From assembly GCA_963790095.1 (NCBI GenBank), contig CAWBNO010000034.1, positions 180,681 through 244,680 on the forward strand: a DNA stretch of 64,000 bases. The letters are read 5' to 3'. The translations under genes were made by a program, and so were the position numbers. Shown here one piece after another: positions 18,593-61,691 of the stretch. Position 1 is the stretch's first letter; each line of letters starts with the position of its first letter. Below the pieces are notes generated by a model. It worked only from the letters and a program-made list of their open reading frames with translations, had not been told where the DNA came from and did not search any database. The stretch is from an uncultured delta proteobacterium (GTDB lineage: Bacteria > Desulfobacterota > Desulfobacteria > Desulfobacterales > UBA11574).

Positions 18593-18631
18593 ACCTAAAC
18601 GCCTCCTTGGGAAACTGTCGGTGCAGCTTTC

Positions 18632-18703: not shown

Positions 18704-18787
18704 TTGAGCCCGGCTTTTTTTGCCGGAGTTTTCTCCAAATGGTTTTTCTCCAAATCTACGGTCTTGAACGATTCACTGTCAATATCT

Positions 18788-40302: not shown

Positions 40303-40422
40303 TTATGGATGGAAACTATCCTGATTGTGCTTTTTCTTTTCCTCCTTTTCTTTGCGTTTTTCTTTAATGGTTTTTGCCGGCTTCTTTCTCACATCCTTTT
40401 TCGTGTCTCTCGACTTTCCCAT
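40303..40422 (-). CDS. Possible 39-aa lysine-rich small protein
   Basis: Not in the ORF track (<60 aa). CAGGAGGGAAAAAA precedes the ATG at 40422. Product: MGKSRDTKKDVRKKPAKTIKEKRKEKEEKKKHNQDSFHP. This could be a chance ORF in a purine-rich tract. Confidence 0.3.
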   Translation of the reverse strand: MGKSRDTKKDVRKKPAKTIKEKRKEKEEKKKHNQDSFHP

Positions 40423-40447
40423 TTTTTTCCCTCCTGATGGATCCATT

Positions 40448-40501
40448 GGGGACGCATCCCAGTTAAATACAAGCAACAACGTTTAACGGGATGCGCCCCC
40501 C
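40448..40501 (+). repeat. Hairpin containing an inverted partial copy of the R element loop module
   Basis: GGGGACGCATCC-CAGTTAAATACAAGCAACAACGTTTAAC-GGGATGCGCCCC. The loop matches the reverse complement of R element positions such as 49359-49388. Confidence 0.65.
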
Positions 40502-40659
40502 ATTTCTCATGGAAATACATGTCAAAGTAAAATAAAACTGTCAAGAATCTTAAAATCGCCGGGGGAAACGCATAATTCCATGAATGTCCCGGAAGTCCTC
40601 CATCCTGATGATGCATTTCATCGCCGTGACGGTGTCCCTCCCCGGACTCCTTGTGCCGC

Positions 40660-40866: not shown

Positions 40867-41003
40867 TTTCCACCTCCGTATCACCAACAGTTATAGTTGC
40901 CGCGGCTTCTTTCGGATAGTCAGTTACAACGGCATTCTATTCACAATTCAAGGTTCAAGGTTTGACACCCTTTTCCTCCAAATCCAAACGCCGCTAGCCT
41001 ATT

Positions 41004-41618
41004 CTATCGCTTATTTCCCCTGCTGTTTAAAACTGTAAAGTCAAATTCAAGCAAATCATGAAATGTTGCTGCTGCTTTATCAGGTTCAACCTGGAACCAG
41101 ATTAAGATATTCTCGACACGATAAAAATAATGCTTAAGCCCCATTCCATCTGTTTTAAAACAAATGTTGTCCCCCATTTTAGTTTGTGTTAACGGTGAAA
41201 AAACAGACGATCCATCGGCCATTTTCATGGCCATTCTCTTTAAGTTCGTTTCAGCCTTTTCAGCGTTTTCATAAACACTTACGTAAAGAATATTCTTGGA
41301 ATCATTGCTTCCGTAATGGGCCATTAAATTTTCACAATTATCGAGCTCTTTGCCATGCATTTTATTAATAACCCGGGTTGATTCTTCATTTAGAATAACT
41401 TTGAAAAGACTCAGTTCACCTAACTTTTTCGGAAAACAATTCCCGTTCTCGCGGGTTTTGACTTTTTCGTTTTTCGATGCTTTTCCAGCATACCCCAACG
41501 GTATCTCAAATAACGTGATCTCCCCATGCGAATGGGTTGTTCCTGAACAACCGAAAACTATACTGTAAACTAGCAGAATCAGTGCAACAAATTTACATAT
41601 TTTCCGTGGGTTTTTCAT
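41004..41618 (-). CDS. Hypothetical lipoprotein
   Basis: The likely start is MKNPRKICKFVALILLVYSIVFGCSG (lipobox FGC). AT-rich, with no recognisable domain. Confidence 0.6.
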   Translation of the reverse strand: MKNPRKICKFVALILLVYSIVFGCSGTTHSHGEITLFEIPLGYAGKASKNEKVKTRENGNCFPKKLGELSLFKVILNEESTRVINKMHGKELDNCENLMAHYGSNDSKNILYVSVYENAEKAETNLKRMAMKMADGSSVFSPLTQTKMGDNICFKTDGMGLKHYFYRVENILIWFQVEPDKAAATFHDLLEFDFTVLNSRGNKR

Positions 41619-41742
41619 GCTGTAAATTCTCATATCTCACTTTTCCATAACAAAAGGTGCGTGCCCACCCCAAAACTGGCGGGAGCTTGCTGTGGTTTTT
41701 ATTTTTTTAAACAAGGATCGAGAGTTGCCCCCTCGCCGCGGA

Positions 41743-43257
41743 TTATTTTTTCCAAGCCCCTAATCTGCGCAGAAGATTAACAACCGGCTCGGATCTTGAG
41801 GGGTCATCCGAGGAGACTGGCTTCAAACGGACCATGGAACAAAATACTCCGGCAACGCAAAGGAAGCAGAAGATCATCATGCAAAGATGCATGCTGGCAA
41901 GAAAAGAGGACTGTGTTTCCGCATTCACCGGGTGGTCCCCCATGATATGTTTGAACACAAGGGTGATGATGGTCATGCTGCACAGCATCCCCATGGTCCG
42001 CATGGTGGCCAGAAAACTGGATGCGATACCATAGCTTTTGGGAGAAACACTCCCCATCACCGCAGTGGTATTGGGGGATGAAAAAAGACTGAATCCCACA
42101 CCCATCAAGGCCAACATCCCCATAATCACGGGCATGGGAGTTCCGGCATGAACCTGGGAACCCAGCCCCAGGCTCAGGGTACACACGCCCATGCCTGCAG
42201 TGGCCAGACCCGCAGGTGAAACCCGGTCTGCCAGCCTTCCAAAAAACGGAGAAAGCGCCGTCTGGAACACGGGCTGGATAATCAGAATCCATCCTGCCCA
42301 TTGGGGAGAATACCCTCTGACCACTATCAAATACAAACTGAAGAAAAAAGCGATGCCAAAAGACGCGGCGTAATTGATAAGGGTGGCCAGGTTACTGAAG
42401 GCGAAAACCCGGTTACGGATGACCAGACCCACATCCAGAATCGGAGATGAACACTGGTATTCAAAGGCGAGAAAGATAAGGAATCCCAAGGCGCCTAATG
42501 CCATCAATACCAGATAAATACCCCCCTCTTTCTGGTTGAGGGTGCCGTAAATCAGACAGAATAAAGCACTCATGTAAAGAAGGGTTCCCACAAAATCAAA
42601 AGGCTCGCCTTTTGCATCCGCCCATTCGCCCTTGAGTTTAAAAACCGTGAGCCAAAGACAGAAAAGCTCCACCAGAACCCCCAGATAAAAGATCCATCGC
42701 CATCCCAGATGGGTGACCATAAATCCGGAAAGAACCGGACCCAGAGACAGCCCCAAGTAGACGCAACCCACGATGATCCCCATGGCCCGCCCCCGGTTGG
42801 CCGGTGGGAAAACCGAAGAAAGGATGGCCACACTGGTTCCGGAAATCATGGCTCCGCCACATCCTTGAAAAAACCGGAACACAATAAAACTTTCAATGCT
42901 AAAGGCGAGGGGTAGCAAAAGGGTTCCCCCAGTGAACACGAGAATGCCGATGGTGAAGATTCTTTTCCTTCCGTAAATATCACCCAGCCGTCCAGCCGGA
43001 ATCAAAAAAAGGGAAAAGGCGAAGATATAGACGGTTTCCACAAGTCCAAGCTGAACCGCACTGGCTGAAAACTCCCTGCCAATGGCAGGAAGGGCCACTC
43101 CCACAGCAGACAGCATGAAGGGGGTCAGGAACTGAACGGCGCTGACCACAAACAGGATCACACCATCGGAGACGCCCTGATCGGAAGGGTTTTTTGAAGC
43201 AATGTTGTGAGGGTTTGCGTCTGATTTTTCTTTTATCTCTGCCACGTCGTTATTCAC
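41743..43257 (-). CDS. MFS transporter (DHA2/EmrB-like drug:H+ antiporter type)
   Basis: 504 aa with many hydrophobic segments and GRLGDIYGRKR (MFS motif A). Confidence 0.85.
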   Translation of the reverse strand: MNNDVAEIKEKSDANPHNIASKNPSDQGVSDGVILFVVSAVQFLTPFMLSAVGVALPAIGREFSASAVQLGLVETVYIFAFSLFLIPAGRLGDIYGRKRIFTIGILVFTGGTLLLPLAFSIESFIVFRFFQGCGGAMISGTSVAILSSVFPPANRGRAMGIIVGCVYLGLSLGPVLSGFMVTHLGWRWIFYLGVLVELFCLWLTVFKLKGEWADAKGEPFDFVGTLLYMSALFCLIYGTLNQKEGGIYLVLMALGALGFLIFLAFEYQCSSPILDVGLVIRNRVFAFSNLATLINYAASFGIAFFFSLYLIVVRGYSPQWAGWILIIQPVFQTALSPFFGRLADRVSPAGLATAGMGVCTLSLGLGSQVHAGTPMPVIMGMLALMGVGFSLFSSPNTTAVMGSVSPKSYGIASSFLATMRTMGMLCSMTIITLVFKHIMGDHPVNAETQSSFLASMHLCMMIFCFLCVAGVFCSMVRLKPVSSDDPSRSEPVVNLLRRLGAWKK

Positions 43258-43487
43258 CCTATGGACGCTTCATGGATTATTGGTTATCATTCTGCAGTTA
43301 AAAGCGGGAGGAAAATATAATGGCAGAATATCGGACAGGCAAAAAAGTGTCAATTATTAATAATTCCGTATCGAAGTCGATACCCTAACGACCCTAATGC
43401 ATTTTTTCATTTGACCCTTCCCTTATAAAGTTGATATCTGACAACCAAAATATCTATTTCTGCAATCCGATATAAAAAGCAAAACTA

Positions 43488-43581
43488 AATATTTGAGGGG
43501 TCGGGGAGTTTTTATTCTAACTCCTTGAGTACCAGCGGAATGGATGATCTTTTAAAAAAACACCTCGACCCCTCAATTATT
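43488..43581. repeat. 16-bp inverted repeat pair enclosing a small hairpin, in a divergent promoter region
   Basis: AATATTTGAGGGGTCG (43488-43503) pairs with CGACCCCTCAATTATT (43566-43581) with 1 mismatch. An internal GGAGTT-N8-AACTCC hairpin is present. Confidence 0.6.
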
Positions 43582-43644
43582 TAAGATCATTCAAAATTTT
43601 GACACATAGCTCAACAGGTGCCGTATTTTGTATAAGGACCGCCT

Positions 43645-45840
43645 ATGCGACCTCGCCGGACAATTATCCTGTATGCCATTATAATAATTGCATTGATCGT
43701 CAAACCAACCGCAGTAAGGGCTGAAACGATTTCCATCTCTGTGTTTCTTGACTACCGGCAATTACAGCTTCTGATGATGCGGGATGCGTTTAATGGACCG
43801 AATCACACTGCACAATATCTATTGGATGATGACGGTTGCACCCGCATTACCTTTTCGGAACCCCATCTGTCAGCAGAGGGAGAGTTGTTGCGCGTAGATA
43901 CGAAGACCCTCGCAACAATTGGCGTCACCACAACGACGGGTGCTTGCAAGGTCATTACCCAATGGAACGGTCGCGCCACGGTTACCGGCAAACCTGTTTT
44001 AGTCAGCGATCAACCGTTTTCCGTAGAGTTTCGGGTCCAGGACACCCGGCTTTACAATCAACAGGGCCGGCTGCTTGAGGATAGTCTTGTCCTCCAGGCG
44101 GTGAAAGAACAATTGCATCTTTTTTTAAGCCGTTACCGGCTGGATCTGAACCCTGAAACCGGTCAGCTCAAAGCCCTTCTACCTTATTTTTTGCCCCATT
44201 ATCCGGCAAATCGCCTATCAGGAATGATCGACAGCCTGCGCATCGGTCTTCTTGATCTCCGGCCCAACGGACTGGAGGTCCGGCTGCTAATGGATGTCGA
44301 AACCGTTGCCAAAGCCGGGCCGGAGCCCGTCCTTAGTGAACATGAAATGGAGCAGCTGGAGCAACGCTACCGAAGCTGGGATTCTTTTTTGACCTTTGTC
44401 ATCAAGGAGGCCGCCTCTGCCACTCCCTCGGAAGAACTTCGAGCCGCCCTGTTGGAAATACTTCTGGATGCACGCTACCAGCTCAAATCGATTCTCACAG
44501 AATCCCAGCAAAGTGCAGCTGACCCGGTCAAACAATTGTTTATCCGAACCTGGGAACAGCTGATGCCGGTAATGCGGGAAATCAGCGTTCGTTCATCGGA
44601 AAAGAACCTCCTCCCCTTTTTATCGTTCATAACAGCGGCTGACGCATTCAAAGCACTGGATCGCCTGGGGCCTGCCTTGGGGCTGGATATATCCACCGAC
44701 GGTCTGAGACGTTTGGCACGCCTTCTAAATGACGACCCATCCATTGATCCGCTGAAATATCTGGATGAAATCGATCCGGGACTGCAACAACTGTTTGATT
44801 TCGGAAGGTCTAGTGAAATTAGCCCACAAAAAAAATCACAGGGTTTTAACTTCCAGCTGATCCGGCCGGTCTATGCTGCAAACCCCAGGAATCGTCTAAA
44901 TCGCTGGGTTCCTGCCCCTGCCGAGGTGAATGCGTATCTCCTTGAAATACGAAAATTATTGTTGAAAGAGGCGGATGCTCGAATTCGTTCGTCATCAATC
45001 GCTCAGAAATACGCTCGTATTTACCGAAAATTGATGCTTACCGCCGCATGGCAAGAAAGCTGCTGGCGTCAATACATCCTACAAAACCGCAAAGTCGTTC
45101 CCCTTATTTCCGCCACAGGTGATATCGGTATGTTGCAGATCAATGAAAAGATATGGCGGGGCTTTTACTCTCCCTCCAAGTTGAGATGGGACATCACCTA
45201 TAACGCCCGTGCAGGCAGTGAAATCCTGTTCAAATTCATGGTCGATTACGCATTGAAACAGAAGGAGCATACCTATGGAGGCGGTCTATCTAATCTGGCC
45301 CGGGCCACTTATTCTGCGTATAACGGCGGGCCATCTCAGGTGAGCCGTTACCGAAAAAACGACGTCCCGGCCGCACACAAAAAAATCGACGCCGCCTTTT
45401 GGGAGAAATATCAGCAGGTACACCAGGGCCAGGAATTGGCCGTAACGAAATGTTTTGGCGGTCAAGCCGCCAGTTCAATGACCGCCGCGCCGCCAATAAA
45501 CACGAGCCGAAAGCAATCCGGTTCAAAACAGGCGACCACAGTCAAGCCGTCACAGCGCATTGAAAATGTCGGGTGGATCAAAAGCCGCAACCCCAAACAC
45601 TTTACGCTGCAACTGACGGCGATGAGCGGTGAGCAGGCGGTCAGAGCATTTATAAAGCAACAATTCCAAGGCGGCAGCTTTGCCTATTATCGAAAAAAAC
45701 AAAACGAACGGTATTTATATGTCGCCATCTACGGCAGTTTTGATAGCCGGGCACATGCGGAAAAGGCCGCTGCTCGTTTTGCTCCCCTTAAACCCTGGAT
45801 ACGGGACTTTGGCAGTATTCAGAAGATACTGTCAAAATAA
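43645..45840 (+). CDS. Lytic transglycosylase (SLT) domain protein with C-terminal SPOR domain
   Basis: 731 aa with a signal peptide. The SLT catalytic region is AAWQESCWRQ...GDIGMLQINEKIW...YNGG. The C-terminal SPOR-like region is HFTLQLTAMSGEQAV...YVAIYGSFDSRAHAEKAA. Confidence 0.8.
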   Translation: MRPRRTIILYAIIIIALIVKPTAVRAETISISVFLDYRQLQLLMMRDAFNGPNHTAQYLLDDDGCTRITFSEPHLSAEGELLRVDTKTLATIGVTTTTGACKVITQWNGRATVTGKPVLVSDQPFSVEFRVQDTRLYNQQGRLLEDSLVLQAVKEQLHLFLSRYRLDLNPETGQLKALLPYFLPHYPANRLSGMIDSLRIGLLDLRPNGLEVRLLMDVETVAKAGPEPVLSEHEMEQLEQRYRSWDSFLTFVIKEAASATPSEELRAALLEILLDARYQLKSILTESQQSAADPVKQLFIRTWEQLMPVMREISVRSSEKNLLPFLSFITAADAFKALDRLGPALGLDISTDGLRRLARLLNDDPSIDPLKYLDEIDPGLQQLFDFGRSSEISPQKKSQGFNFQLIRPVYAANPRNRLNRWVPAPAEVNAYLLEIRKLLLKEADARIRSSSIAQKYARIYRKLMLTAAWQESCWRQYILQNRKVVPLISATGDIGMLQINEKIWRGFYSPSKLRWDITYNARAGSEILFKFMVDYALKQKEHTYGGGLSNLARATYSAYNGGPSQVSRYRKNDVPAAHKKIDAAFWEKYQQVHQGQELAVTKCFGGQAASSMTAAPPINTSRKQSGSKQATTVKPSQRIENVGWIKSRNPKHFTLQLTAMSGEQAVRAFIKQQFQGGSFAYYRKKQNERYLYVAIYGSFDSRAHAEKAAARFAPLKPWIRDFGSIQKILSK

Positions 45841-46212
45841 TCATTACGAATGCGAGACCTTATCAACGGAAGGGTTTAACTCATTTTCCTTGGGACAATT
45901 TTCACCTGAAAACCGATAAGATGTCCCGATCTAAACCTGATTTGACAGGATATCATCGAAAAATGGGTTTCTAAACGGCCTCTTTGAACCGTCGTTCCAG
46001 TTGAACGCTTTGTGTTTTCTTGTCATACCATCCTGCGAATAAAATCAAGTCCATATGATTGTCCAGCTTTGGAGAAAACGTAACCATCAGAGGAAGAGTT
46101 CGTATTTTTGGATAAAAAATGGCGATTGACAACCTGACCCGCCTTTGGTATCCGATTCTAAAGTGTTTTGCGAGGGTCTTAGGATGAAAACTTTCCGGAT
46201 AGAAAGCACATT

Positions 46213-46353
46213 ATGCAAAAGATACGGCCAACACCTCTGGTTCTAATGCTTATTTTTTGTCTTTGTCTGCTCCTGGGTATCAATCTGGGAGAAGTCCAGG
46301 TGGTTCTGGAAAAAGCAACGGCAATTTGCTTGAGCTGCATTGGAATCGGGTAA
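46213..46353 (+). CDS. CD1871A-family-like CXXC small membrane peptide (46 aa)
   Basis: Not in the ORF track (<60 aa). Product: MQKIRPTPLVLMLIFCLCLLLGINLGEVQVVLEKATAICLSCIGIG*. It has one TM helix and then a C-terminal CxxCIGIG, as I recall for this family. It ends 31 nt before the 4Fe-4S membrane protein gene. Confidence 0.6.
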   Translation: MQKIRPTPLVLMLIFCLCLLLGINLGEVQVVLEKATAICLSCIGIG

Positions 46354-46384
46354 ACCCACCCGCACCCAAAATTCAGGGGTAAAG

Positions 46385-47269
46385 ATGGACTTAAGACGTT
46401 GGATTCAAACCCTCGCGGTCTTTTTGACCAATGCAAGCTGGCAGTTTCCGTTTACGCGAAACCTGTATAAGGGAAACCTGAAAGCTGTTTGCGCCCCGGG
46501 TCTCAACTGTTATTCCTGCCCAGCCGCCACCAGCGCTTGCCCCCTGGGGGCGATGCAGACCTTTATGGCCACTGCCAGGCCCAATTTCGAAGCCGGCCGT
46601 TTTCACCTGGGCCTTTACCTAATCGGCATGCTGGGACTGATCGGAAGCCTGGTTGGGCGCATGCCGTGCGCCTGGCTGTGTCCCTTTGGTTTGATCCAGG
46701 AATTAATCCACAAAATTCCATCTCCTAAATTCGAAATCCCCAGATTCTTGACTTATTTCAAATACATGTTTTTGGCCCTGTTCGTAGTGATCTTACCTTT
46801 GGCAGTAGCCGATGAGTTCGGATACGGGGTGACATGGTTTTGCAAGTACGTCTGTCCGGCCGGGACCCTGGAAGCAGGGTTGCCGATGCTGCTGCTGAAG
46901 CCTAAACTGCAGGAGGTGATCGGGGGGTTGTTTTACAGCAAGGTCATCATCCTGATGGGCTTTCTCGTTTGGATGGTGGTAAGCCGGCGCCCTTTTTGCC
47001 GGGTCGCCTGCCCATTGGGTGCGATCTACTCATTTTTTAACCGTTACAGCGTCTTCAGGCTGACCTATGATCCTGAGAGATGTACCCACTGCCAGTCCTG
47101 CTATCACGGTTGCCCCATGGGTGTGAAGTTTTATGAGGGGCCCAACCAGAAGGATTGTATCCGCTGTTTGAAATGCCTTCAACAGTCGTGCAAATTCGGT
47201 GCAATCTCCTATGATGGTGCGGGTCAGAGGACAATACCGGTTCCCCTCAAGATTAAAAACGGGTCATAG
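46385..47269 (+). CDS. Membrane-bound 4Fe-4S binding protein (NapH/MauN-like)
   Basis: ORF 46340..47269 with a likely ATG at 46385. Contains CxxCP and CPFG motifs in TM loops (CYSCPAATSACPLG, WLCPFG, CPAG, CPLG) and a C-terminal ferredoxin-type CTHCQSCYHGCP...CIRCLKC. Confidence 0.8.
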   Translation: MDLRRWIQTLAVFLTNASWQFPFTRNLYKGNLKAVCAPGLNCYSCPAATSACPLGAMQTFMATARPNFEAGRFHLGLYLIGMLGLIGSLVGRMPCAWLCPFGLIQELIHKIPSPKFEIPRFLTYFKYMFLALFVVILPLAVADEFGYGVTWFCKYVCPAGTLEAGLPMLLLKPKLQEVIGGLFYSKVIILMGFLVWMVVSRRPFCRVACPLGAIYSFFNRYSVFRLTYDPERCTHCQSCYHGCPMGVKFYEGPNQKDCIRCLKCLQQSCKFGAISYDGAGQRTIPVPLKIKNGS

Positions 47270-47283
47270 CCCCCTTGGCCCTT

Positions 47284-47769
47284 TCAGGGTAACTCGAACA
47301 GTTTTTTGATTTTTCGATCCAGATCCGCATGGGATCGCTGCCCGGGAAGTTTTTCAACAACCTGACCATTCTTGATAAAAAAAATCATCGGGATAGCATA
47401 GATATCGTATTTTTGGGCCATGTCGACGCCGACCCAGTAGACCGGAAAGTTCACATGTAGTTTGTCAAAAATCGGTTGCATGGCTTGGGGTCCATTGGCA
47501 TCCAGGCTGATGCCGACCATTTTCAGACCCTGATCCTTGTATTTATCGAATAGTTTGATCAATGTCGGCAGCTCCTTCCGACAAGGACCACACCAGGCTG
47601 CCATGGCGATAATCATGCGCTGGTTGTTGGAGTCTTGCATCAATCGGTCGAGCCCGGCCATGTCCATTTTTTCAATCACGATTCTGCCTTCGGCGGCCAG
47701 GGCCGTCATATTCAGTAAAAGCATAACCGCCACAACGGTTCCCATAATCCACGTGAAATATTTCAACAT
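47284..47769 (-). CDS. TlpA-family thiol:disulfide oxidoreductase (thioredoxin fold)
   Basis: 161 aa with a signal/anchor sequence and the active site AAWCGPCRKELP. Confidence 0.85.
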   Translation of the reverse strand: MLKYFTWIMGTVVAVMLLLNMTALAAEGRIVIEKMDMAGLDRLMQDSNNQRMIIAMAAWCGPCRKELPTLIKLFDKYKDQGLKMVGISLDANGPQAMQPIFDKLHVNFPVYWVGVDMAQKYDIYAIPMIFFIKNGQVVEKLPGQRSHADLDRKIKKLFELP

Positions 47770-48060
47770 GAGGACTTACTCCACAGAGATCAATAGTTTC
47801 AGATAGTGCTGCATAACCGCGATCCAATCCACCGGAAATTCCATGGCCGGAATCGGATGCCCAATGATATCATAATTATGTTGAAAATCCAATTAAAGGC
47901 CAGCACGGTCATCCATAGGGGCTTTCAGCGCCATTGGACTTGAGGGTGAACCATAAAAACACGGGGCAAGAGAGCCGGGTGAAAAACGGATGAAAACATG
48001 ACGCCTCCCAATGTCTTTTCCGTCCTTCAATGTTGGGTTTTCCTGATTGGGCCTTGGATC

Positions 48061-48246
48061 TTATCCGTTCTCCGGATATTTGTAAACGTTCAAACCGATG
48101 ATAGCATCCGTACCATCAACCTTCTGGTTGCCCCGTGTGCTGGCAATGGTTATTGTTTTTCCGGATTTTGAGGGTCCGAAGTCCTTTTTCAAATCTATCT
48201 CAATAATTAATTTATCGTCTTTAATTTCCCATTCCACGTTCTGCAT
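48061..48246 (-). CDS. Small hypothetical protein (61 aa)
   Basis: An internal ATG at 48246 is preceded by GAAGGTGAAGAA. Product: MQNVEWEIKDDKLIIEIDLKKDFGPSKSGKTITIASTRGNQKVDGTDAIIGLNVYKYPENG. The longer ORF form would overlap the HD gene. Confidence 0.5.
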   Translation of the reverse strand: MQNVEWEIKDDKLIIEIDLKKDFGPSKSGKTITIASTRGNQKVDGTDAIIGLNVYKYPENG

Positions 48247-48337
48247 TTCTTCACCTTCTTTCGTCTTTTCGTCTATACCATTTTGAATGCACCCCCAATG
48301 TCTCATGTCTTGTTTATTTAAATCAGGGGGGAGATAA

Positions 48338-48988
48338 TTACATTTGGCCACGTCTCTTTTTTTCAATATTTTCTATTTTCTTTAAGAGCCTCTTGGTGTT
48401 TTTTTGCTTCTCCTTTTCTCTCAACTTTTTCTGAGATTCAGTATAATATTGGTGTTTATTTAAAAATTCGAGGGTACCTTTGTACCATTTTGCTTCATCA
48501 CTAACATCTATTCCTCTTTCACTCCGCCCATCTCTTACTTTTCCATCTAATTTGAAAAAATCTTCTCTGCCGAGGTGGTCGAGATCGGCATCACAAAGAA
48601 TTTTTTCAAGATGGGTTTTCGGTTCACGCTCAAGATCGGTTGATAGTATCATCTTTTGAACCTTTACAACTTCGTTTGGCTTATAACCGATCAATTTAAG
48701 GATTCTGCCTGCCATTCGTGCCGCAATCGGCTCATTTTTTTCATATTCTCTAATGTAACCCGTGTCATGGAAATAGGCCGCAGTAATTAATAATTCTCTA
48801 TCATGTTCGGAGATATTCTCAGATATTGCAATACTGTTGGCAGCAGCAACGACTCCTTTGGTAGGATGAAGTGTGTGATCAGCATCATGATATTTAATGC
48901 CGGCTGGCAACTCATCTCTAAATAACTCCCTTATATAGTGGTCCACGATTTTCAGCCGAGGTGTATGAGGCTTGTATCTTAGTCGCAT
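48338..48988 (-). CDS. HD domain metal-dependent phosphohydrolase
   Basis: 216 aa with KYHDADHTLH, AAYFHDTGY and CDADLDHLG (an H..HD..D arrangement) and a Lys-rich C-terminal tail. Very AT-rich: line 48361-48420 has 18/60 G+C by hand count, against 32/60 for 9421-9480. Confidence 0.75.
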   Translation of the reverse strand: MRLRYKPHTPRLKIVDHYIRELFRDELPAGIKYHDADHTLHPTKGVVAAANSIAISENISEHDRELLITAAYFHDTGYIREYEKNEPIAARMAGRILKLIGYKPNEVVKVQKMILSTDLEREPKTHLEKILCDADLDHLGREDFFKLDGKVRDGRSERGIDVSDEAKWYKGTLEFLNKHQYYTESQKKLREKEKQKNTKRLLKKIENIEKKRRGQM

Positions 48989-49045
48989 ATCTATATTCCC
49001 TTTACTTTTGTAGGTGTTATGGTTATTTCAGGTTCTTGAAAATAT

Positions 49046-49076
49046 GATTCTTCTCCAATTTTGTTGGAGAAGAATC
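49046..49076 (-). terminator. Hairpin with a partial U-run (possible intrinsic terminator); member of a 2-copy hairpin family
   Basis: GATTCTTCTCCAA-TTTTG-TTGGAGAAGAATC is a perfect 13-bp stem. On the minus strand it is followed by ATATTTTC. A related hairpin lies at 51180-51207. Confidence 0.4.
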
Positions 49077-49274
49077 TTGACGGTTTCGTAAAAAGTCTTT
49101 TGTGAGCGACATCGAGCAATTTTGGAGAAAGACTCATGATGCGCCTGGCGTTAAAAATTGCAAGCTGCTTGAGGGTGTTAGCCCGAGTTCTTGCAATTTA
49201 GCCAGGCGGGTCAAGAATCCCAAAATTGCTTGCGGAGCGATCAAAATCAGACTTTTTACGAGTTCATCAATCTT
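49076..49274. mobile_element. Foldback MITE-like repeat (TCGTAAAAAGTC family), long ~200-bp form
   Basis: CTTGACGGTTTCGTAAAAAGTC...GACTTTTTACGAGTTCATCAATCTT. Nested complementary arms are present (ATTTTGG/CCAAAAT, GCCTGGC/GCCAGGC, AAAATTGCAAG/CTTGCAATTT). The outer ~75 nt equals the short form at 54428-54504. Confidence 0.8.
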
Positions 49275-49277
49275 AAT

Positions 49278-49391
49278 AATTAAGATTTATCCCGCCTGTT
49301 GGAGCGTAGCGGAAATCCCGTTATCGGGGCTCCGTAGGTAGTTTACTATCCTACTGGGGTTAAACGGTGTTGCTTGTATTTAACTGGGATC
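49278..49391 (-). repeat. R element copy A (structured interspersed repeat)
   Basis: The 95-nt core TATCCCGCCTGTTGGAGCGTAGCGGAAATCCCGTTATCGGGGCTCCGTAGGTAGTTTACTATCCTACTGGGGTTAAACGGTGTTGCTTGTATTTA is shared with copies B and C. The stop codon of ORF 49360..50631 lies inside it (GTTAAAC). Confidence 0.85.
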
Positions 49392-50631
49392 CACCTCTCC
49401 TGTCTTTCCCTGCCTGTTGGGCGAATACCCGGAATCGGCGTGCTTCCTCCTCGTTTCCCATCGAAGCATATATTCGGCTGATCTTCTGAAAATATAACGG
49501 AGCATTTTTCGGATCATCCTGAACCAGGGAAAGATACATTTCCATAATCCCTGAAGAATGCTGGCCTAAATCAAAGCTGATATCTGCGAATCTTCGTTTG
49601 ATCAGAGGATCGGTTCGGGAATGACAGCTGCGGCACTGATCCATAATTTTGGCATATAAATCCCGGGCGCTTTCAAGGTCTCCCAATGTCTCCAATGTGC
49701 CGGCAAGGGCAATCGATAGTGGTTGGTTCCATCCGTATGCTTCCATGGAATCTTGATATAAAGAGGCGGCTTCCGGATGCCTCCCGGCCTGAGATAGGGT
49801 TTCGCCACGGAGCAGGACATAGGCCAAAGAGTTTTTAAGGTCATCCGGACAATCGGCAAGAAGGGTTTCAGCCTGATCAAAAGCCCCTATTTCCCAGTAA
49901 ACCTCGCAAAGCAACTGATAACCCGGCAGAGCATCCAGATGATGTTTGAGAAAGGTCTCCAGCAGACGGCGGGCTTCATCCAATTTCCCAAGGTTCAGGT
50001 TGGCCGTGGCCAGCTCAAGGGGGATAATTGAATCCGGGGCAGGGTTCTCCTCCAAGGCCTGTGACAGTTTATCGGCTGCAAGATCAAAGTCTCCCCGGTT
50101 CAGTGCAAGATAACCGGTTTTAAAGGACCCTCCATAGGAAATGTAGGCCTCCTGCACCTCTTCGGGCAGTGCACTGCAGAGTGCCATAAAAGTCTCATCG
50201 TCCTGATCACCGGTGAATGTCTCGTCATCGCCGAGGGGAGTCAGGTCAGATTGAGGCACTTCCATTTGAATATCTCCGGCTGTGATGCGCTCAATCTCAT
50301 GCATAAGTTTCTCAACAGCGGATATCAATGCAGGGTCCCGGGTCAAGTCGAGGGCCAATTGAAGAAGCCTCCTCGCCTCATCGTAATATTCGGCCTCCAT
50401 CAAATCTTCAGCGGCCTGCCGGTGTTCGTGTGCCAGGGCCCCTTTGGCCTGAACCAGTTTATCCCGAAGCCTTTTTACTGAAGCATCATCAGCCGATGTT
50501 TTTTCCAATGCGGCCAGAGTCTTTTCGAATTCAAGTTTTGCCCTGCCCCAATCGGAGACCTTTAAAAAGGCATCACCCTTCTGCTCGGTCTTTCCAGGAT
50601 CTTGACCGAAAAACTTTTTGAGAAGTCCCAT
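49360..50631 (-). CDS. TPR repeat protein
   Basis: 423 aa with multiple 34-aa A/L/Y-patterned repeats. The C-terminal 8 residues (QLNTSNTV) are encoded by R element copy A. Confidence 0.75.
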   Translation of the reverse strand: MGLLKKFFGQDPGKTEQKGDAFLKVSDWGRAKLEFEKTLAALEKTSADDASVKRLRDKLVQAKGALAHEHRQAAEDLMEAEYYDEARRLLQLALDLTRDPALISAVEKLMHEIERITAGDIQMEVPQSDLTPLGDDETFTGDQDDETFMALCSALPEEVQEAYISYGGSFKTGYLALNRGDFDLAADKLSQALEENPAPDSIIPLELATANLNLGKLDEARRLLETFLKHHLDALPGYQLLCEVYWEIGAFDQAETLLADCPDDLKNSLAYVLLRGETLSQAGRHPEAASLYQDSMEAYGWNQPLSIALAGTLETLGDLESARDLYAKIMDQCRSCHSRTDPLIKRRFADISFDLGQHSSGIMEMYLSLVQDDPKNAPLYFQKISRIYASMGNEEEARRFRVFAQQAGKDRRGGSQLNTSNTV

Positions 50632-50919
50632 AAGCTCAGAATCCTTTTGCCCTTATCAAGAAAGGAGTTGTAAATGAGTTGATTCAAACAATTATCACAA
50701 ACCGTCTCCCATTCCCGATATCATATCCTCCAAGACAGCATCCGATTAATATCATTGAAGATTGGGTTTGTAAATCTTGAACTTTTGGGGATCTTTATTT
50801 GGACGATGTAATGAAACGTATTTAACCGGTGCCCCCCTTGTTTTCCAGGAAATGGGTAAGAAACAGGATGAGGCTGGAGCCAAGCTCCAACTCCATCCCA
50901 AAATCGGAACGGAATACGA

Positions 50920-51153
50920 CTACACTTTTAAGCAGAACATGGTGTGTGTGTCTCTAATGCCGCCAATGACTCTTATCTTGTCATATGTCACAGAAAGCAT
51001 ACTGGCGTCATCAGGAGTCTGTACCTCAGCCACGATATCAAAACGCCCGGCAGCCAAATAGACATTTTTTACCCCTTCGATTTTCTTGACTTGACCAGCG
51101 ACCTCACGGTCGACACCCGGATTTGACTTAATTAGAATAATTGCCTTTGCCAT
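50920..51153 (-). CDS. Stand-alone Lrp/AsnC-type ligand-binding (RAM) domain protein
   Basis: The likely start is ATG 51153 (RBS GAAAGGAG). Product: MAKAIILIKSNPGVDREVAGQVKKIEGVKNVYLAAGRFDIVAEVQTPDDASMLSVTYDKIRVIGGIRDTHTMFCLKV, 77 aa with no HTH. Confidence 0.7.
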   Translation of the reverse strand: MAKAIILIKSNPGVDREVAGQVKKIEGVKNVYLAAGRFDIVAEVQTPDDASMLSVTYDKIRVIGGIRDTHTMFCLKV

Positions 51154-51179
51154 GATATAATCTCCTTTCAAAGTAAAGG

Positions 51180-51207
51180 TTCTTCTCCAATTTAGTTGAG
51201 AGAAGAA
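51180..51207 (-). terminator. Hairpin with a U-rich tail (possible intrinsic terminator), related to 49046-49076
   Basis: TTCTTCTC-N12-GAGAAGAA. On the minus strand it is followed by CCTTTACTTT. It sits between R element copy B and the RAM-domain gene. Confidence 0.35.
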
Positions 51208-51210
51208 GCA

Positions 51211-51335
51211 CAATTAAGATATATCCCGCCTGTTGGAGCGTAGCGGAAATCCCTTTATCGGGGCTCCGTAGGTAGTTTACTATCGTATTGGGGTTAAACG
51301 GTGTTGCCTGTATTTAAATAGGATGCGACCCCATG
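51211..51335 (-). repeat. R element copy B
   Basis: 4 mismatches to copy A over the 95-nt core (hand alignment). The minus-strand 5' part ACATGGGGTCGCATCCTATTTAAATAC supplies the last residues (GSHPI) and the stop of ORF 51314..51904. Confidence 0.85.
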
Positions 51336-51904
51336 TCTTCAGGCAGCACCTCACCGAATTCCACACCGATTCCCTGGGAATCAATCCGAACCACTTTACC
51401 ACTCACTGTCAGGTCTTTTTCGGCTCGGGAGAGAGAGAAGGTCATTGTGATCTCCTGACCAATTTTAAAGCTGAAATCGGTATGAATAAAGACACCGCCA
51501 TGACTTAAATTCTGAATGAAACACATATAGGTAAAACCGTTGGTGGAGACTTCGACAGGCGCAGAAAAAGGTCTTCGGGGAAACTCCCTTAACTCGGTGT
51601 GTTTGGAACGATACCAGTTGGTCAGCTTTTCCAGAAGTTCCCGTCTTTTTGCTTCAGATATACTGGTAATGAGCGATGACAGGTCTTTTCTATGTTCGGT
51701 TTTGGATAATTTAGATTTTAATACGGAGTTAAGGTTTCTCCGTTCAGCTTCGGACATGAAGGAAATGATTTGAAACAACAGAGAGTTTACCTCATATATA
51801 TTAAATTCCTCTTTGTTGTTCGGCATGAATAGAATCCTTATCTCGTGTCTTTCGTCTATAATCTCCCGAATGCCTTCTTGAAATATCGAGGATATCAAAA
51901 GCAT
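51314..51904 (-). CDS. PilZ domain protein (C-terminal PilZ, N-terminal helical region)
   Basis: 196 aa (alternative start at 51826, MPNNKEEF). Contains the PilZ motifs PRRPFSAPVEV (RxxxR-like) and IQNLSHGGVFIHT (NxSxxG). Confidence 0.7.
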   Translation of the reverse strand: MLLISSIFQEGIREIIDERHEIRILFMPNNKEEFNIYEVNSLLFQIISFMSEAERRNLNSVLKSKLSKTEHRKDLSSLITSISEAKRRELLEKLTNWYRSKHTELREFPRRPFSAPVEVSTNGFTYMCFIQNLSHGGVFIHTDFSFKIGQEITMTFSLSRAEKDLTVSGKVVRIDSQGIGVEFGEVLPEDMGSHPI

Positions 51905-52008
51905 ATAATATTAAGGAATTAATGTCAATCGACACAGATCGCATCCTCCAGAACAAATGGGCAGGAATGAGGTTTAGAACCTAATTGACTTGTTTGTGGA
52001 TGTCCCGT

Positions 52009-52227
52009 TTATTTCCCAAAGTCCGAAAAAGACGGGCCGAAACAAGGATCAAGCATACCACCCGCTCCGGTATACTCTTCTCGCATTCTCATGGTGGAGG
52101 AAGACATTAGTTTCGCCACATTCTTACCCTGGCATTCGGGGCATTGGGGGGGGGGATCATTGGAAGACAGCAATAGTATTTCAAAGCAGTGAGAACAGTC
52201 TTTACACTCATAGTCATAAATTGGCAT
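52009..52227 (-). CDS. FmdB-family zinc-ribbon protein
   Basis: MPIYDYECKDCSHCFE...PPPQCPECQG. This is the second paralogue in the window. Confidence 0.75.
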   Translation of the reverse strand: MPIYDYECKDCSHCFEILLLSSNDPPPQCPECQGKNVAKLMSSSTMRMREEYTGAGGMLDPCFGPSFSDFGK

Positions 52228-52521
52228 TGGCTCCTCCGCAAAAAAATAACAGTTGATTAATCAGAAGCCATTTTTATAACACCAATATCCAAAATTAATC
52301 AATCTTTATATTTAATGGTCGATCCGATTGCCAGACAAGCAACTTACAAACTTATGTTCTCAAATCCACACATATGATTAACAGAATTTCAATTTGGGGC
52401 ATCACGTCACGGGGGGTTCATGTAACCATGACAAACCTGATTCCATATAGTTATATTGTTGGATACAGGTATTATTAGGCGTCATGTCCAAATATTTGGC
52501 AAAATAAATCCTCCGAGAGAT

Positions 52522-52650
52522 TTAATTCAAAATGGTAAGAAATTTCGAACCATTTAAAATCTCTGTGGAATAACTTATTACGGCAAAGGTAATGTACGAT
52601 AAAGACATAAGGCTAGCGATAATTAAGATTAGGGTATTCATTGTTTTCAC
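52522..52650 (-). CDS. Possible 42-aa hydrophobic peptide
   Basis: Not in the ORF track. AAGGAGGTGCAACA precedes the GTG at 52650. Product: VKTMNTLILIIASLMSLSYITFAVISYSTEILNGSKFLTILN*. One predicted TM segment. Speculative. Confidence 0.3.
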   Translation of the reverse strand: MKTMNTLILIIASLMSLSYITFAVISYSTEILNGSKFLTILN

Positions 52651-52784
52651 TGTTGCACCTCCTTTATGCTTTGAGGTGTCTTCATTTTCTATAAAAAAGA
52701 TGATTTGTGTTTCACCATAAAGTTAATGCCACTTTGTGGTATGTCAAGGGTCATTAGAATTACCCCCGGGGTATGCACTGAAAG

Positions 52785-52821
52785 GATAAAAAGAGACCCC
52801 TGCCAGAATGACTGACAGGGG
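52785..52821 (-). terminator. Intrinsic terminator (minus strand)
   Basis: The minus strand reads CCCCTGTCAG-TCATT-CTGGCAGGGG followed by TCTCTTTTTATCC. The stem is 10 bp with one mismatch. Confidence 0.65.
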
Positions 52822-52857
52822 CTATGTTCTTTGTCAGATGAATTTGATCTCTGTTAG

Positions 52858-53071
52858 CTCGTTTCCATCCATAAATGGCTATTTTTCCGATGAGCGGCGT
52901 TCTCCGCGGATTTCCGTCCTCGACGAACAGGCGTACGCCTCGGGCGAAAACCCTTGTGCCTGCCCCGTGAAATGCGAAGCATATTTAACTGGGTCGGCCT
53001 TGCTCATCGAAAAAACATCTCATTTATGAATTGGAAACTACTCAGTACTCGAATGTGTTTATGGATGGAAA
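52858..53071 (-). ncRNA. Candidate structured RNA / degenerate repeat between the PilZ gene and the terminator
   Basis: Long-range complementarity: 52862-52875 pairs with 53058-53071 (14/14) or alternatively with 53021-53038 (imperfect), and 52882-52895 pairs with 53002-53015 (13/14). There is a central palindrome AGGCGTACGCCT. It contains GGATTTCCG-N9-AACAGGCG (52908-52933), the inverse of the R element module, and TATTTAACTGGG (52982-52993). Confidence 0.35.
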
Positions 53072-53081
53072 ATAGTTCATT

Positions 53082-53402
53082 TTACAAGGCTTTTAAACTC
53101 TCAATCTGACATTCTCTGTCAAATTGAATCGCAATACCGTGAGGGGAGGAACGCACCATGCTTCCTGTGCAGCAAGTCAGACTCTCTATATCGTTAAATT
53201 CTTGAAGGTTGTCAGACGGGATGGTGAAATCCAGTATAAACCGTGTCCTATCCGGAAAAGAAGTTAGTGTAACAATGAATGTTCCAGAATAAGATATGTC
53301 TCTGGTTTCAAGGTCTAAAACCTTTTTTCTGTCTAATGATATGGTTTCCAGTCTCACAGGGAGAGGAATTTTTAGCCTTGTATATTGACGTCTCTCTTCC
53401 AT
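53082..53402 (-). CDS. PilZ domain protein
   Basis: 106 aa with ERRQYTRLKI (RxxxR) and TRDISYSGTFIVT (DxSxxG). Confidence 0.7.
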   Translation of the reverse strand: MEERRQYTRLKIPLPVRLETISLDRKKVLDLETRDISYSGTFIVTLTSFPDRTRFILDFTIPSDNLQEFNDIESLTCCTGSMVRSSPHGIAIQFDRECQIESLKAL

Positions 53403-53576
53403 TGGAAACCCCTTTCGTGGGTGAGGTTAAATACCGATAAAACGTTAGAATAAGAAGCTCTGAAAAAACAATATGGTCTTAATGTTTCGGTTTCAATCAA
53501 AAATATCAACATCAAAAATCCTATTTCGAACCACGAAAAGGGAATATATTCAGATTTTTTAGCACTGTTCAAACTC

Positions 53577-53697
53577 TATCTATCCCGCCTGTTGGAGCGT
53601 AGCGGAAATCCCGTTATCGGGGCCCCGTAGGTCGTTTTCTATCGTACTGGGGTTAAACGTTGTTGCTTGAATTTATTTGGGATCCGGCCCCCATGTC
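53577..53697 (-). repeat. R element copy C
   Basis: 6 mismatches to copy A over the 95-nt core. It begins about 30 nt after the stop of the TPR gene 53728..54240. Confidence 0.85.
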
Positions 53698-53727
53698 GTT
53701 TTTAATTTAAGGGGCCCGAAAGTTCCC

Positions 53728-54240
53728 TCACTTCATCTGTTTTTTAACTTCCGAAACCAGTTCCTGATGCCGATAATTGTCCGGATCTTCTGCAAGCGCT
53801 TTTTCTCCCCAGTAAAGTGCGTTTGGCCAGTCCTTTTGCTGACGGTAATTTTCCGCAATGACATATAGTATATGCTTTAACGGTACATTTCTGACTTCAT
53901 GAGGCATATCGAGCACCTTCTTGAAATCGGCTAGGGCAAATTCGTGATTCTTTTTGACCGTGTAACAGCTTCCCCGGCCTATCAGGCTTTCCTCGTCGTA
54001 TGCGTCCAGTGCCAAAGCACGCGAGTATAACAGAATCGCATCGTCTAACCGTCCTTCGATCTCGGAAATTTTACCCAGATAAAAATAGGGATTGTCGCCG
54101 TCCTTATGGCGATAGGCAGGATCTATCTCAACAACTGCTTCGAATGCTCGAACAGCCCCAACACCGTCCGGCTTGTTGAAACATCTTATGCCTTCATTAA
54201 ACCAATCGGCCGCAGAACTTCGTGTGTCGTCGTTATCCAT
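53728..54240 (-). CDS. TPR repeat protein
   Basis: ORF 53728..54381 with a likely ATG at 54240 (MDNDDTRSSAADWFNEG). Contains several TPR-patterned repeats (YFYLGKISEIEGRLDDAILLYSRALALD...). Confidence 0.7.
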   Translation of the reverse strand: MDNDDTRSSAADWFNEGIRCFNKPDGVGAVRAFEAVVEIDPAYRHKDGDNPYFYLGKISEIEGRLDDAILLYSRALALDAYDEESLIGRGSCYTVKKNHEFALADFKKVLDMPHEVRNVPLKHILYVIAENYRQQKDWPNALYWGEKALAEDPDNYRHQELVSEVKKQMK

Positions 54241-54427
54241 GGTTAACCTTTCAAACCTTTGCAGTCTAACCCCACCCCCGGAGTTTGCTGATTTGAACCG
54301 AATTGAACGAAAGTCGGGGCTTCCCCGCCTTTGACGGTGATACGCCAGATTCCCAGCGTCAAGGAAAGATCCGACCCGCAAATCAATTTATGTTTTTATC
54401 AAACATTATTCGCTATTCAAAATTTAT

Positions 54428-54504
54428 TAAACTTGACGGTTTCGTAAAAAGTCTTTTGTGAGCGACATCGAGCAAAATCAGACTTTTTACGAGTTCATCA
54501 AACT
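54428..54504. mobile_element. Foldback MITE-like repeat (TCGTAAAAAGTC family), short 77-bp form
   Basis: AAACTTGACGGTTTCGTAAAAAGTCTTTTGTGAGCGACATCGAGCAAAATCAGACTTTTTACGAGTTCATCAAACTT. Confidence 0.8.
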
Positions 54505-54550
54505 TAATATGTTAAGAATGTCCCCTAATACAACCTGTATTATTTAGGCA

Positions 54551-54739
54551 TCAAGATCCATGAGCAAAAAGTTTATGATATTCATCGTGAGTAAGTTTGC
54601 CATTTTTATCCAAATCAGCTGCTTTAAATCTTTCATTATCATTTTCGAAAAATTTCTCAAACTCCTGAAAGGTTACTTTACCATCATTTGTTGCCCTTAC
54701 CCTTACTCTTCCCTTTGCTCTTACACTCGGGTTTTTCAT
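54551..54739 (-). CDS. EF-hand pair protein (62 aa)
   Basis: NDGKVTFQEFEKF and DLDKNGKLTHDEY are Ca-binding-loop-like sequences. No signal peptide is visible. Confidence 0.55.
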   Translation of the reverse strand: MKNPSVRAKGRVRVRATNDGKVTFQEFEKFFENDNERFKAADLDKNGKLTHDEYHKLFAHGS

Positions 54740-54912
54740 TGTAAAGATTATGGCATTGCTTTAAGGCATGGAACTCTTTTGAACCGGGCTTTATACCCAG
54801 ACTTTTCGCAATTGCGCCCCAGCCCCTTATCTTCAATAATTAACAATTAAGATTTATCCCGCCGGCCCTGCCTGTCCAATGGAATGTTTTTGAAGTTCTT
54901 ATTCCATGGGGT

Positions 54913-59700: not shown

Positions 59701-60564
59701 ACCTTAATTGAGCAAAAATAGCGGCTTGTCCGCCTCTGGCGAGGATGCCCTTTAAATTACAACCCTAATTGAGCGAAAGCTTAGGATGCCCCAGATCCAA
59801 GGCATCAAGGACGAAGCCCCGCAGACAAAGCGGGATAGACCTCCGTCATCTACTGCGAGCCCTTGATAACGAAGGAGATAGGGTATTATCAGTTTTTCCG
59901 AAGGGCAAACAAAATGGGATTGTATTAAAAGATTTATATCTAATCTATAGAAGCGGTGTGAAAATACATTTGTATCAACAAAATATATAAAAAACTAATC
60001 AGTTATAATATTTTTCCCAGTTTGTTTGCGATCAATTAGGGTAAAAGTTTCTGTCTTAACCTTTGGTTTGTCAGTTTCCTGCGGGACTCGTTGTTTTTTC
60101 AAAGCAACTCAATAATTAAAAATTTAGATGCGATCCCCATGTTATTCAGTTGATTTGAGCCGCTATAAACATAAAACCCCAGCTCTATTTAGAAGCGGGG
60201 TTCCTTGTCATCATCGCATATGCTTTTCTTTTGTTTAGGGTTAAAGAACTTGTTTCAATATCTGTCATCTATTCGCATAGTTACTACAATCAGTCAAGGC
60301 TAATTTCAAAATCCTATATAGTAGCAGTTACATCGTTTAAATGGATATTTATACAGTTAGAGATATTGAGCAAGAGACATCCAATCTCCCGATTCTTAGA
60401 ATGCTTGCTTTATTTAATTCTTATTTAATCAAGAATCAAGGTTTAACCCCAGCCTTTCTTCCGCAAAAAGGTAGGTGGTATCACAAACATTTTTTCAAGA
60501 AAGGCAAAAAATCACAGATGTCCCGTTTATTTTTCCGAAGCGGTGTTAGATGAGCAACTAAGAA

Positions 60565-61564: not shown

Positions 61565-61691
61565 AGTTCACAGCGAAGGCTGATAATCAAGGATCAAGGT
61601 TTGACCCCAGCCTTTCTCAAGCTGAATGTTAATTTCAAAATATTACAAACGTTATACCACTCATATAACAGTCTTACTTAAGAAACACATC

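Follow-up and report, generated by a model that had tools for sequence, protein, structure and literature searches.

The sequence analysed here, referred to as the window, is a 64,000 nt stretch of DNA from an uncultured delta proteobacterium of the Desulfobacterales (lineage UBA11574; GenBank assembly GCA_963790095.1, contig CAWBNO010000034.1, positions 180,681 to 244,680 of the forward strand). Between 49 and 54 kb it carries three copies of a repeat, termed R, all on the minus strand (nhmmer E values of 1e-44 to 1e-46) and each at the end of a different gene; the rest of the window is ordinary chromosome, encoding IleRS, LspA, pyruvate kinase, RecQ, rhamnose genes and others. The repeat had been described in an earlier note made from the sequence alone. 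Alignment with copies from outside the window reveals R to be a mosaic, in which constant ends, a head and a tail, enclose three hairpin modules, M1, M2 and M3. The three copies, and the parts of copy A, are as follows.

49271..49407, minus strand: R copy A, with head, M1, M2, M3 and tail (nhmmer E 1e-44)
49388..49407, minus strand: head of copy A, AAAGACAGGAGAGGTGGATC, a degenerate form of AAAGACATGGGGTCGCATC; like the outer part of a terminal inverted repeat (TIR)
49359..49387, minus strand: M1 of copy A, the hairpin CCAGTTAAAT-N12-GTTTAAC
49330..49359, minus strand: M2 of copy A, CCCCAGTAGGATAGTAAACTACCTACGGAG, a hairpin bounded by CCCC...GGGG
49291..49329, minus strand: M3 of copy A, CCCCGATAACGGGATTTCCGCTACGCTCCAACAGGCGGG, a small hairpin and a bipartite motif
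49271..49290, minus strand: tail of copy A, ATAAATCTTAATTATTAAG, like the inner part of a TIR; shortened by the insertion of a foldback
51210..51340, minus strand: R copy B, which gives the PilZ gene 51314..51904 its ..MGSHPI* end and stop codon
53566..53700, minus strand: R copy C, beginning 29 nt past the stop codon of the 170-aa TPR gene 53728..54240

A repeat search and a hidden Markov model (HMM) of the copies found full-length matches in the window at 49274-49405, 51207-51339 and 53566-53699 only, and a 29-nt core of R occurs three times against none expected. The copies are less alike than the ~95% identity first claimed for them, the pairwise values being 93.0% (A-B), 90.7% (A-C) and 85.6% (B-C); within a 99-nt core there are 6, 8 and 11 mismatches respectively, where four had been counted between A and B and six between A and C. 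Their extent had also been understated, as R runs from the head AAAGACATGGGG.. to a tail reaching as far as ..TTGAC/TTGAAC. Other parts of the first description proved accurate: the copies lack TIRs of their own; the open reading frame (ORF) 49360..50631 (..QLNTSNTV*), which encodes a TPR protein, stops within copy A, from which its final 16 codons and stop codon come, and ORF 51314..51904 (..GSHPI*) stops within copy B; the 29 nt between the 170-aa TPR gene and copy C match the distance of about 30 nt given before; and R contains the hairpins GTTAAA-N13-TTTAAC and CCCG-TTAT-CGGG as well as the bipartite module CGCCTGTT-N9-CGGAAATCC. The proposed GGAGC/GCTCC stem is broken in relatives, which carry GGACC, and the description of the repeats as structured is weak, since neither strand of the full copies A, B and C folds better than shuffled sequence (z from -0.1 to -2.1).

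In its family form the constant head reads AAAGACATGGGGTCGCATC and the AT-rich tail ATAAATCTTAATTATT(AATTATT)GAC, also written ATCTTAATTATT..TTGAC. Joined, the two make a single terminal-repeat-like sequence, which exists alone as a short form of ~38 nt; the M1-M2-M3 block is nested in this short-form sequence between ..GCATC and TTAATT. M1 has the general form CC(A/G)GTTAAAT-N12-GTTTAAC, and is also found as a solitary hairpin within an outer stem at 40445-40503, while M2 has the form CCCCAGTAcGATAGTAAACTAcCTACGGgG and its place is taken in contig L001 by another hairpin (ATGAAAC..GTTTCAT). The small 4-bp hairpin of M3 has a fifth pair that reads TA, AT, CG or TG across variants, and copy B breaks the fourth pair. 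In copy C the tail ends TTGAACA and is followed 18 nt on by TATATT, giving the promoter-like match TTGAAC-N18-TATATT. A reading of the tail as a complete promoter was abandoned, since a -35-like box is the only promoter element constant in it.

At least nine R-related copies are present in the window, as singles, as groups and as a dimer-like hairpin (40445-40503). Those not previously recorded lie at 40445-40503, 54831-54911 and 60108-60146, with a further bipartite motif at 52908-52933. These relatives, and the hairpins and foldback that adjoin copies A and B, are listed below.

40445..40503, plus strand: partial relative of R, with inverted head-like arms GGGGACGCATCCC and GGGATGCGCCCC around M1 (nhmmer E 2.5e-9)
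54831..54911, minus strand: relative of R, 2 nt past the phosphoglucomutase stop codon, with a different hairpin, CCATGGAAT..ATTCCATTGG, then GGCGGGATAAATCTTAATTGTTAATTATTGAAG
60108..60146, minus strand: short form, head and tail with the modules absent, ACATGGGGATCGCATCTAAATTTTTAATTATTGAG; junction as in the short forms of L041
56645..56667, minus strand: solo TIR-like repeat of type 2, GGGGTAAAATCTTGATTCTTGAT, matching the left end of the L053 TIRtron (a transposase-encoding unit, described below) at 19/23 positions
60428..60450, minus strand: solo TIR-like repeat of type 2
61586..61608, minus strand: solo TIR-like repeat of type 2, a homologue of which gives the L058 TPR gene its C-terminus and stop codon
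52861..53038, plus strand: foldback element E2, in which the M3 bipartite motif (52908-52933) is opposite in sense to an M1-like hairpin
49046..49076, minus strand: terminator-like hairpin of 13 pairs with the tail ATATTTTCAA, which adjoined copy A before the foldback insertion
49076..49270, no strand assigned: foldback resembling a miniature inverted-repeat transposable element, between the copy A tail and the hairpin; a separate repeat family
51180..51207, minus strand: related hairpin immediately past copy B and ahead of the AsnC-type gene 50920..51153

The relative at 40445-40503 folds with -30.6 kcal/mol (z -4.5 against shuffles), as a dimer-like hairpin or one resembling the paired, hairpin-forming repetitive extragenic palindromic (REP) sequences known as REPINs. 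The type-2 repeats, GGGGTnAAAnCTTGATnCTTGAT, at 56645, 60428 and 61586 are all on the minus strand, with none expected by chance. The bipartite motif at 52908-52933 is the fourth exact occurrence in the window, on the strand opposite to the R copies and within E2, which has modules in common with R but is no R copy. E2 has the ends GTTTCCATCCATAAATGG, and is recorded at 52861-53038 (plus strand), at 40100-40316 (minus strand), at 4941-5016 of L004, where it adjoins R, and at 3069-3118 of L040; its inner 50 nt are 100% identical to DNA behind the L040 TPR gene. The two related hairpins that the earlier note had placed after copies A and B are both present; the first has a counterpart in L041, behind a short form at the orthologous site, and the second is kept in L040. 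The foldback after copy A is likewise present, with a length of 195 bp rather than 199.

The comparison of gene ends relies on contigs that are 91-95% identical to the window in shared DNA. The TPR gene 49360..50631 has many orthologues with a 412-aa product that finishes ..FAQQAENGKG*; the window protein reads ..FAQQA|GKDRRGGSQLNTSNTV*. There is no element at this position in L031, L035 and L038; L041 has the head and tail only, as a short form with the hairpin of the window behind it; L040 has a head with other modules; the window has a full R; and L058 has a type-2 TIR-like repeat. The 170-aa TPR gene is followed by a degenerate head, M1 and tail in L035, and by M1-M3 in the window. Behind the PilZ gene of L040 lies an R in which the M2 loop contains a foldback of ~190 nt and M3 has 19 additional nt. 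In L041, M3 gives way to another module. The junction GCATC|TTAATT is identical in short forms from three sites that are independent of one another, namely 60108 in the window and two in L041. As orthologous sites vary in this manner and the short forms share this junction, it is concluded from the alignments that the module block, with a content that turns over, is a unit nested in a pre-existing short sequence.

Orthologues of the TPR gene 49360-50631 are 92-93% identical in DNA and 88-90% in protein, and the lower value for protein marks the gene as fast-evolving; the different repeats at its stop codon generate at least five different C-termini. Gene order between 48 and 64 kb of the window is unusually fluid relative to L031, L035, L038, L040, L041 and L042, with the TPR gene having different neighbours in each of the six relatives. 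Small genes (TPR, AsnC-type, Zn-ribbon, PilZ, GFA and LpxR; 88-95% nucleotide identity) occur in a different order in each relative and in constant orientation. The blocks of homology are gene-sized, and homology breaks at 53698, 51178 and 49410, the edges of copies C, B and A respectively. In L038, the TPR and AsnC-type genes have been exchanged without inversion; one difference between L040 and the window is a plain 238-nt deletion, the edges of which have no repeat.

Scanned once each for the M3 motif, the genome and the metagenome collections returned 30 loci, among them the window sequence itself (L009, 99.7% identity). Full-length R was found in unrelated contexts in metagenome-assembled genomes (MAGs) of Desulfobacterales or in sediment contigs (L004, L016, L020, L040 and L041). 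Most of the 30 loci have M3 without M1 or M2 (~25 metagenome contigs), usually beside other CCCC...GGGG hairpins and in varying combinations with them; it is arranged in tandem in L026 and in kilobase-long arrays in L023, and relative to crude ORF calls it occurs in both orientations in other contigs. An M3-like module, CCCCGCAAGCGGGATTTCCGCTTCGCTACAACAGGCGGGAT, in a MAG of the Calditrichaceae (L005, 5106-5149), and so in a different phylum, could be the result of horizontal spread or of contamination of the bin. Motif matches in Erythrobacter (L003) and Ignavibacteria (L002) fall inside ORFs and were taken to be chance or unrelated. Viral contigs gave no match to the M3 motif, nor was any match found in plasmid and phage collections. 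R may be regarded as the long form of a TIR-like linker; all nine independent heads of R or of linkers are co-oriented with the upstream ORF, the stop codon of which lies within -77 to +42 nt of the head.

A link to a transposase emerged from L029, where a five-module array including M3 adjoins an ORF of 311 aa that combines a Y1_Tnp domain (E 1e-14) with a Bac_DnaA_C helix-turn-helix (HTH). More than 7900 homologues of this ORF were found at E<1e-30, mostly on short contigs and carrying the Joint Genome Institute name RayT, or REP-associated tyrosine transposase. At 15 fetched loci, representing five sub-families, every Y1 gene is flanked by a TIR of ~33 nt, AA.ACAAYGGGGTCAGGTCTTCATTCTTGACA; the left TIR lies 75-95 nt upstream of the ATG and supplies a -35-like TTGACA, and the right TIR overlaps the stop codon. 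These TIRs are of the type GGGGWSAS, seen in GGGGTCAG, with TTGACA at the inner end. GGGGWSAS is the common motif of TIRtrons, the units encoding TIRYTs, tyrosine transposases (Y1/HUH) associated with TIRs (Di Nocera et al. 2013, PMC3733652), and TIR repeat families are moderately abundant, being solo, dimeric or grouped (PMC3733652); TIRYTs have been placed in TnpA_REP subclass 2.1, with DnaA_C or HTH tails (Quentin et al. 2018, PMC6006769). In an ORF upstream of one of these TIRtrons (L043, 1-290), Y1_Tnp is joined with the restriction-modification domains Eco57I and TaqI_C.

The ends of R resemble the two halves of such a TIR. The head, as AAAGACA-TGGGGTCGCATC, aligns with the outer half, AAGACAAYGGGGTCAGGTC, and the tail, ATCTTAATT..ATTGAC, with the inner half, GTCTTCATTCTTGAC; the alignment is supported by tail-TIR intermediates before the TPR block in L042 (GTCTTCATTATTGACA, a 15/16 match to the TIR) and L035 (ATCTTCATTTTTGACA), L041 having ATCTTAATTAATAATTATTGACG there. 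With an HMM of the joined linker, 3/7 of the best matches in 31.5 kb of TIRtron loci fell on TIRs, and in register, at weak E values of 0.5-9. The type-2 repeats of the window agree with the left end of a genuine TIRtron in up to 19/23 positions, and L042 contains a canonical solo TIR. The R-bearing contig L004 also has a truncated TIRYT gene, a 23-aa remnant with left-end-like sequence upstream. The left ends of TIRtrons are placed as R is, 17 nt past the preceding stop codon in L053 and overlapping that codon in L056.

The explanation we favour, at a probability of about 0.6, is that R is a non-coding, non-autonomous mosaic, like those formed by REP sequences in bacterial interspersed mosaic elements (BIMEs), built on a TIRtron-type end. 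Judged by the alignments, the ends of R belong to a sequence family that also exists alone, R itself is a dispersed mosaic of separable units, added at gene ends and altering the C-termini of two proteins, and Y1/HUH transposase units whose terminal repeats are similar abound in organisms of this kind. R copies would be made, and their modules reshuffled, by a Y1 transposase that acts in trans, cutting and joining single strands; a TIRYT encoded elsewhere in the genome would act on the R ends and modules, and the TIRs of its cognate TIRtron would read GGGGTCGCATCTTAATT..TTGAC. Recombination or gene conversion between R copies may add to the reshuffling. R lies immediately behind the stop codon of a co-directional gene or covers it, and the last codons of two genes are therefore rewritten. 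It is probably transcribed together with the upstream gene as a hairpin-rich 3' untranslated region (UTR), and its tail could lend a -35-like TTGAC(A) to a downstream gene, as in the TTGAAC-N18-TATATT past copy C; such effects on 3' UTRs and -35 boxes would be by-products and not a dedicated function.

Several observations weigh against this explanation. The likeness between R and the TIRs is modest, with GGGGTCGC in R matching GGGGWSAS at 7/8 positions, an 8-nt gap being needed in the alignment and the HMM E values lying at 0.5-9; the match in the partial copy 40445-40503, GGGGACGC, is also 7/8. An HMM of TIRtron left ends gave no significant match on R in the window (best E 0.74), pointing instead to the type-2 repeats. 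The 64-kb window contains no TIRYT gene, and none with matching ends was found; tblastn with sequences of IS200, IS608 and the E. coli RAYT (REP-associated tyrosine transposase), and with the L029 TIRYT, gave no match in the window, and Pfam identified no transposase, integrase, TnpA or TnpB among its 66 ORFs. The modules adjoin a Y1 gene in L029 alone, and there on one side only, with none at the 15 other TIRtron loci (L043-L057), and in L057 a short linker situated 0.9 kb from a TIRtron differs from it in sequence. As GC skew is uniform across the window, the orientation bias of R is inseparable from the direction of genes and of replication. The copies counted are those of the 64-kb window and related contigs, and gene conversion or ordinary recombination could be the source of the patterns from which transposition is proposed.

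Among described repeats, the TIR repeats of TIRtrons offer a close parallel. Related contigs contain Y1_Tnp genes with a DnaA_C-type HTH bounded by long GGGGWSAS TIRs; solo copies occur in the window and its relatives; R-related copies are found as singles, dimers (40445-40503) and groups; and alignment pairs the head of R with the outer TIR half and its tail with the inner. R differs in being split by an array of ~100 nt of unrelated hairpin modules, which is undescribed for TIR repeats, in the only moderate TIR likeness of its head and in that every copy found abuts a stop codon in a single orientation. The REP/BIME and REPIN systems of E. coli and Pseudomonas, mobilised by RAYTs, share with R a composition of short imperfect palindromes in variable extragenic mosaics: the M1, M2 and M3 hairpins are within the 20-40 nt range of REP palindromes, R lies mostly just downstream of genes, its presence and number of units vary at orthologous sites, it is linked to the HUH Y1 transposase superfamily and it is probably transcribed with the upstream gene. 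Unlike REPs, R has no clear GTAG/CGTC tag (M2 has a GTAG on the complementary strand, ..CCGTAGGTAG.., and M1 and M3 are without one), and its ends are fixed and non-palindromic. Its modules do not flank a single-copy RAYT as in REPtrons, the Y1 genes here being highly multi-copy and TIR-bounded.

That R is instead a cis-acting RNA of the 3' UTR under selection, whether a stabiliser of mRNA 3' ends, a terminator module or a small RNA (sRNA) derived from the 3' UTR, is a reading that we consider unlikely; its likeness to repeats would then be secondary. A family of regulatory RNAs or sRNAs embedded in 3' UTRs was among the possibilities raised in the earlier note. Such an RNA would account for heads that all share the direction of the upstream gene and begin at its stop codon, for the terminator-like hairpins behind copies A and B, for the local hairpins, including M3 with its varying fifth pair, and it has a precedent in the stabilisation of upstream mRNA by REPs elsewhere (cited in PMC3733652). 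However, selection on an RNA structure is difficult to reconcile with the absence of compensatory changes, at 0/27 pairs in three copies and 0/14 consensus pairs in ten (for which reason no covariance model was built), with folding energies of whole copies no better than those of shuffles, or with a copy B that disrupts the M3 hairpin. Orthologous genes lack R or have other sets of modules, and in other contigs M3 has no fixed orientation with respect to genes. Rfam, run on the whole window at gathering thresholds, returned a single tRNA; at E<=10, 48900-54600 gave just two spurious matches to long non-coding RNAs, both outside R. A promoter and terminator scan of 48300-54900 gave counts not above those of shuffles, the hairpin after copy A and the TTGAAC-N18-TATATT after copy C alone being of note.

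The fluid gene order bears on another suggestion, namely that R marks cassettes. R and the short forms might be recombination sites for the excision and reinsertion of gene-sized blocks in one orientation, not of the attC/IntI kind and possibly run by a Y1 enzyme; we regard this as quite improbable. The intuition has some foundation, since the breaks in homology with relatives fall exactly at R elements, the same small genes recur in other orders with their orientation always kept, the neighbours of the TPR gene differ in all six relatives and the exchange in L038 involved no inversion. As with the attC sites of integrons, such as the Vibrio cholerae repeats of chromosomal cassette arrays, R is ~125 nt long, its copies are ~90% alike and share one orientation, and it directly follows small genes of a single orientation where gene order is fluid. 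R nevertheless lacks R''/R' core sites, an overall imperfect palindrome and an associated IntI; no RYYYAAC...GTTRRRY pair of the kind that bounds an imperfect palindrome of 55-140 nt occurs in or around copies A, B and C on either strand, so that the attC proposal finds no support in the architecture scan, and none of the 66 ORFs of the window encodes an integrase or recombinase, Phage_integrase types included. Moreover, several genes separate the R copies, their neighbours include ordinary housekeeping genes, several junctions are free of any element (the TPR ends of L031 and L038), the plain deletion in L040 has no repeat at its edges, and the breakpoints may simply be repeats acting as hot spots of ordinary recombination. 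In a related and still more doubtful scenario, the TIR-like linkers would be the working sites of gene shuffling driven by TIRYTs, with a gene and its linker reinserted behind stop codons and the orientation kept; were this true, cassettes would behave much as in integrons but with neither an integrase nor attC, which would explain why the small genes are ordered differently in every close relative.

The remaining suggestion, that R is a non-autonomous derivative of a single-strand Y1 transposon, comes closest; the ends of R resemble the terminal repeats of the TIRYT/TIRtron units in related metagenome contigs. The specific form proposed, a palindrome-associated transposable element (PATE) of the IS200/IS605 type with a transcript acting as an omega- or re-RNA-like guide scaffold for a TnpB/IscB nuclease, seems very improbable. 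R does share with PATEs and the omega-RNA regions of TnpB a relation to Y1 single-strand transposases, the lack of TIRs within the element, a hairpin near one end and strand bias, and a classical IS200 TnpA lies 1.4 kb from the M3 array of L023. We nevertheless do not take R for an IS200/IS605 PATE. The related autonomous units have long TIRs and the window is without TnpA or TnpB; Pfam detects no TnpB or IscB ORF in the window or beside any copy, and R does not end in a pair of similar hairpins. The guide scaffold finds neither a match to any Rfam family, HEARO and omega types included even at E<=10, nor covariation, and a fixed scaffold is incompatible with the variable module content of R.

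Other repeats are scattered through the window. The foldback that shortens copy A belongs to a family with the terminal repeats GACTTTTTACGA..TCAA..TTAAT, members of which lie at 1107-1288, 4229-4464, 18625-18709, 49076-49270 and 54415-54520, two of them just 3' of stand-alone nuclease genes (HNH, 4681-5187; GIY-YIG, 18788-19177). A 240-nt foldback at 20135-20376, with 42-nt arms that are 83% complementary, occupies an ORF-poor stretch (19900-20980). Two families of 57-84 nt, with 75-88% identity and both direct and inverted copies, are found at 22036-22094 and 28919-28977, and at 4513-4596, 8116-8172 and 29103-29186; direct repeats of 69 nt at 38085-38153 and 38196-38264, spaced 111 nt apart, are 71% identical. 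The sole Rfam match, at 7257-7342 on the minus strand, is an 86-nt tRNA with a long variable arm. The metagenome contig L009, 99.7% identical to 41525-52354, is without 541 bp (40984-41524) inside ORF 41004..41633, and its synteny is lost at ~40737, near an E2 copy and the 40445-40503 hairpin, representing either a very recent rearrangement or an assembly variant.

If the favoured explanation is true, R is a family in abundant uncultured Desulfobacterales of marine sediments that links REP/BIME-like mosaics with the barely studied repeats of TIRYTs and TIRtrons. Its repeats would land precisely on stop codons, with independent insertions at the end of the TPR gene rewriting protein C-termini, and would mark local breaks in gene order between relatives that are 91-95% identical. 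Such repeats fragment metagenome assemblies and create false candidates for conserved 3' UTR RNAs, and recognising them avoids mis-annotation.

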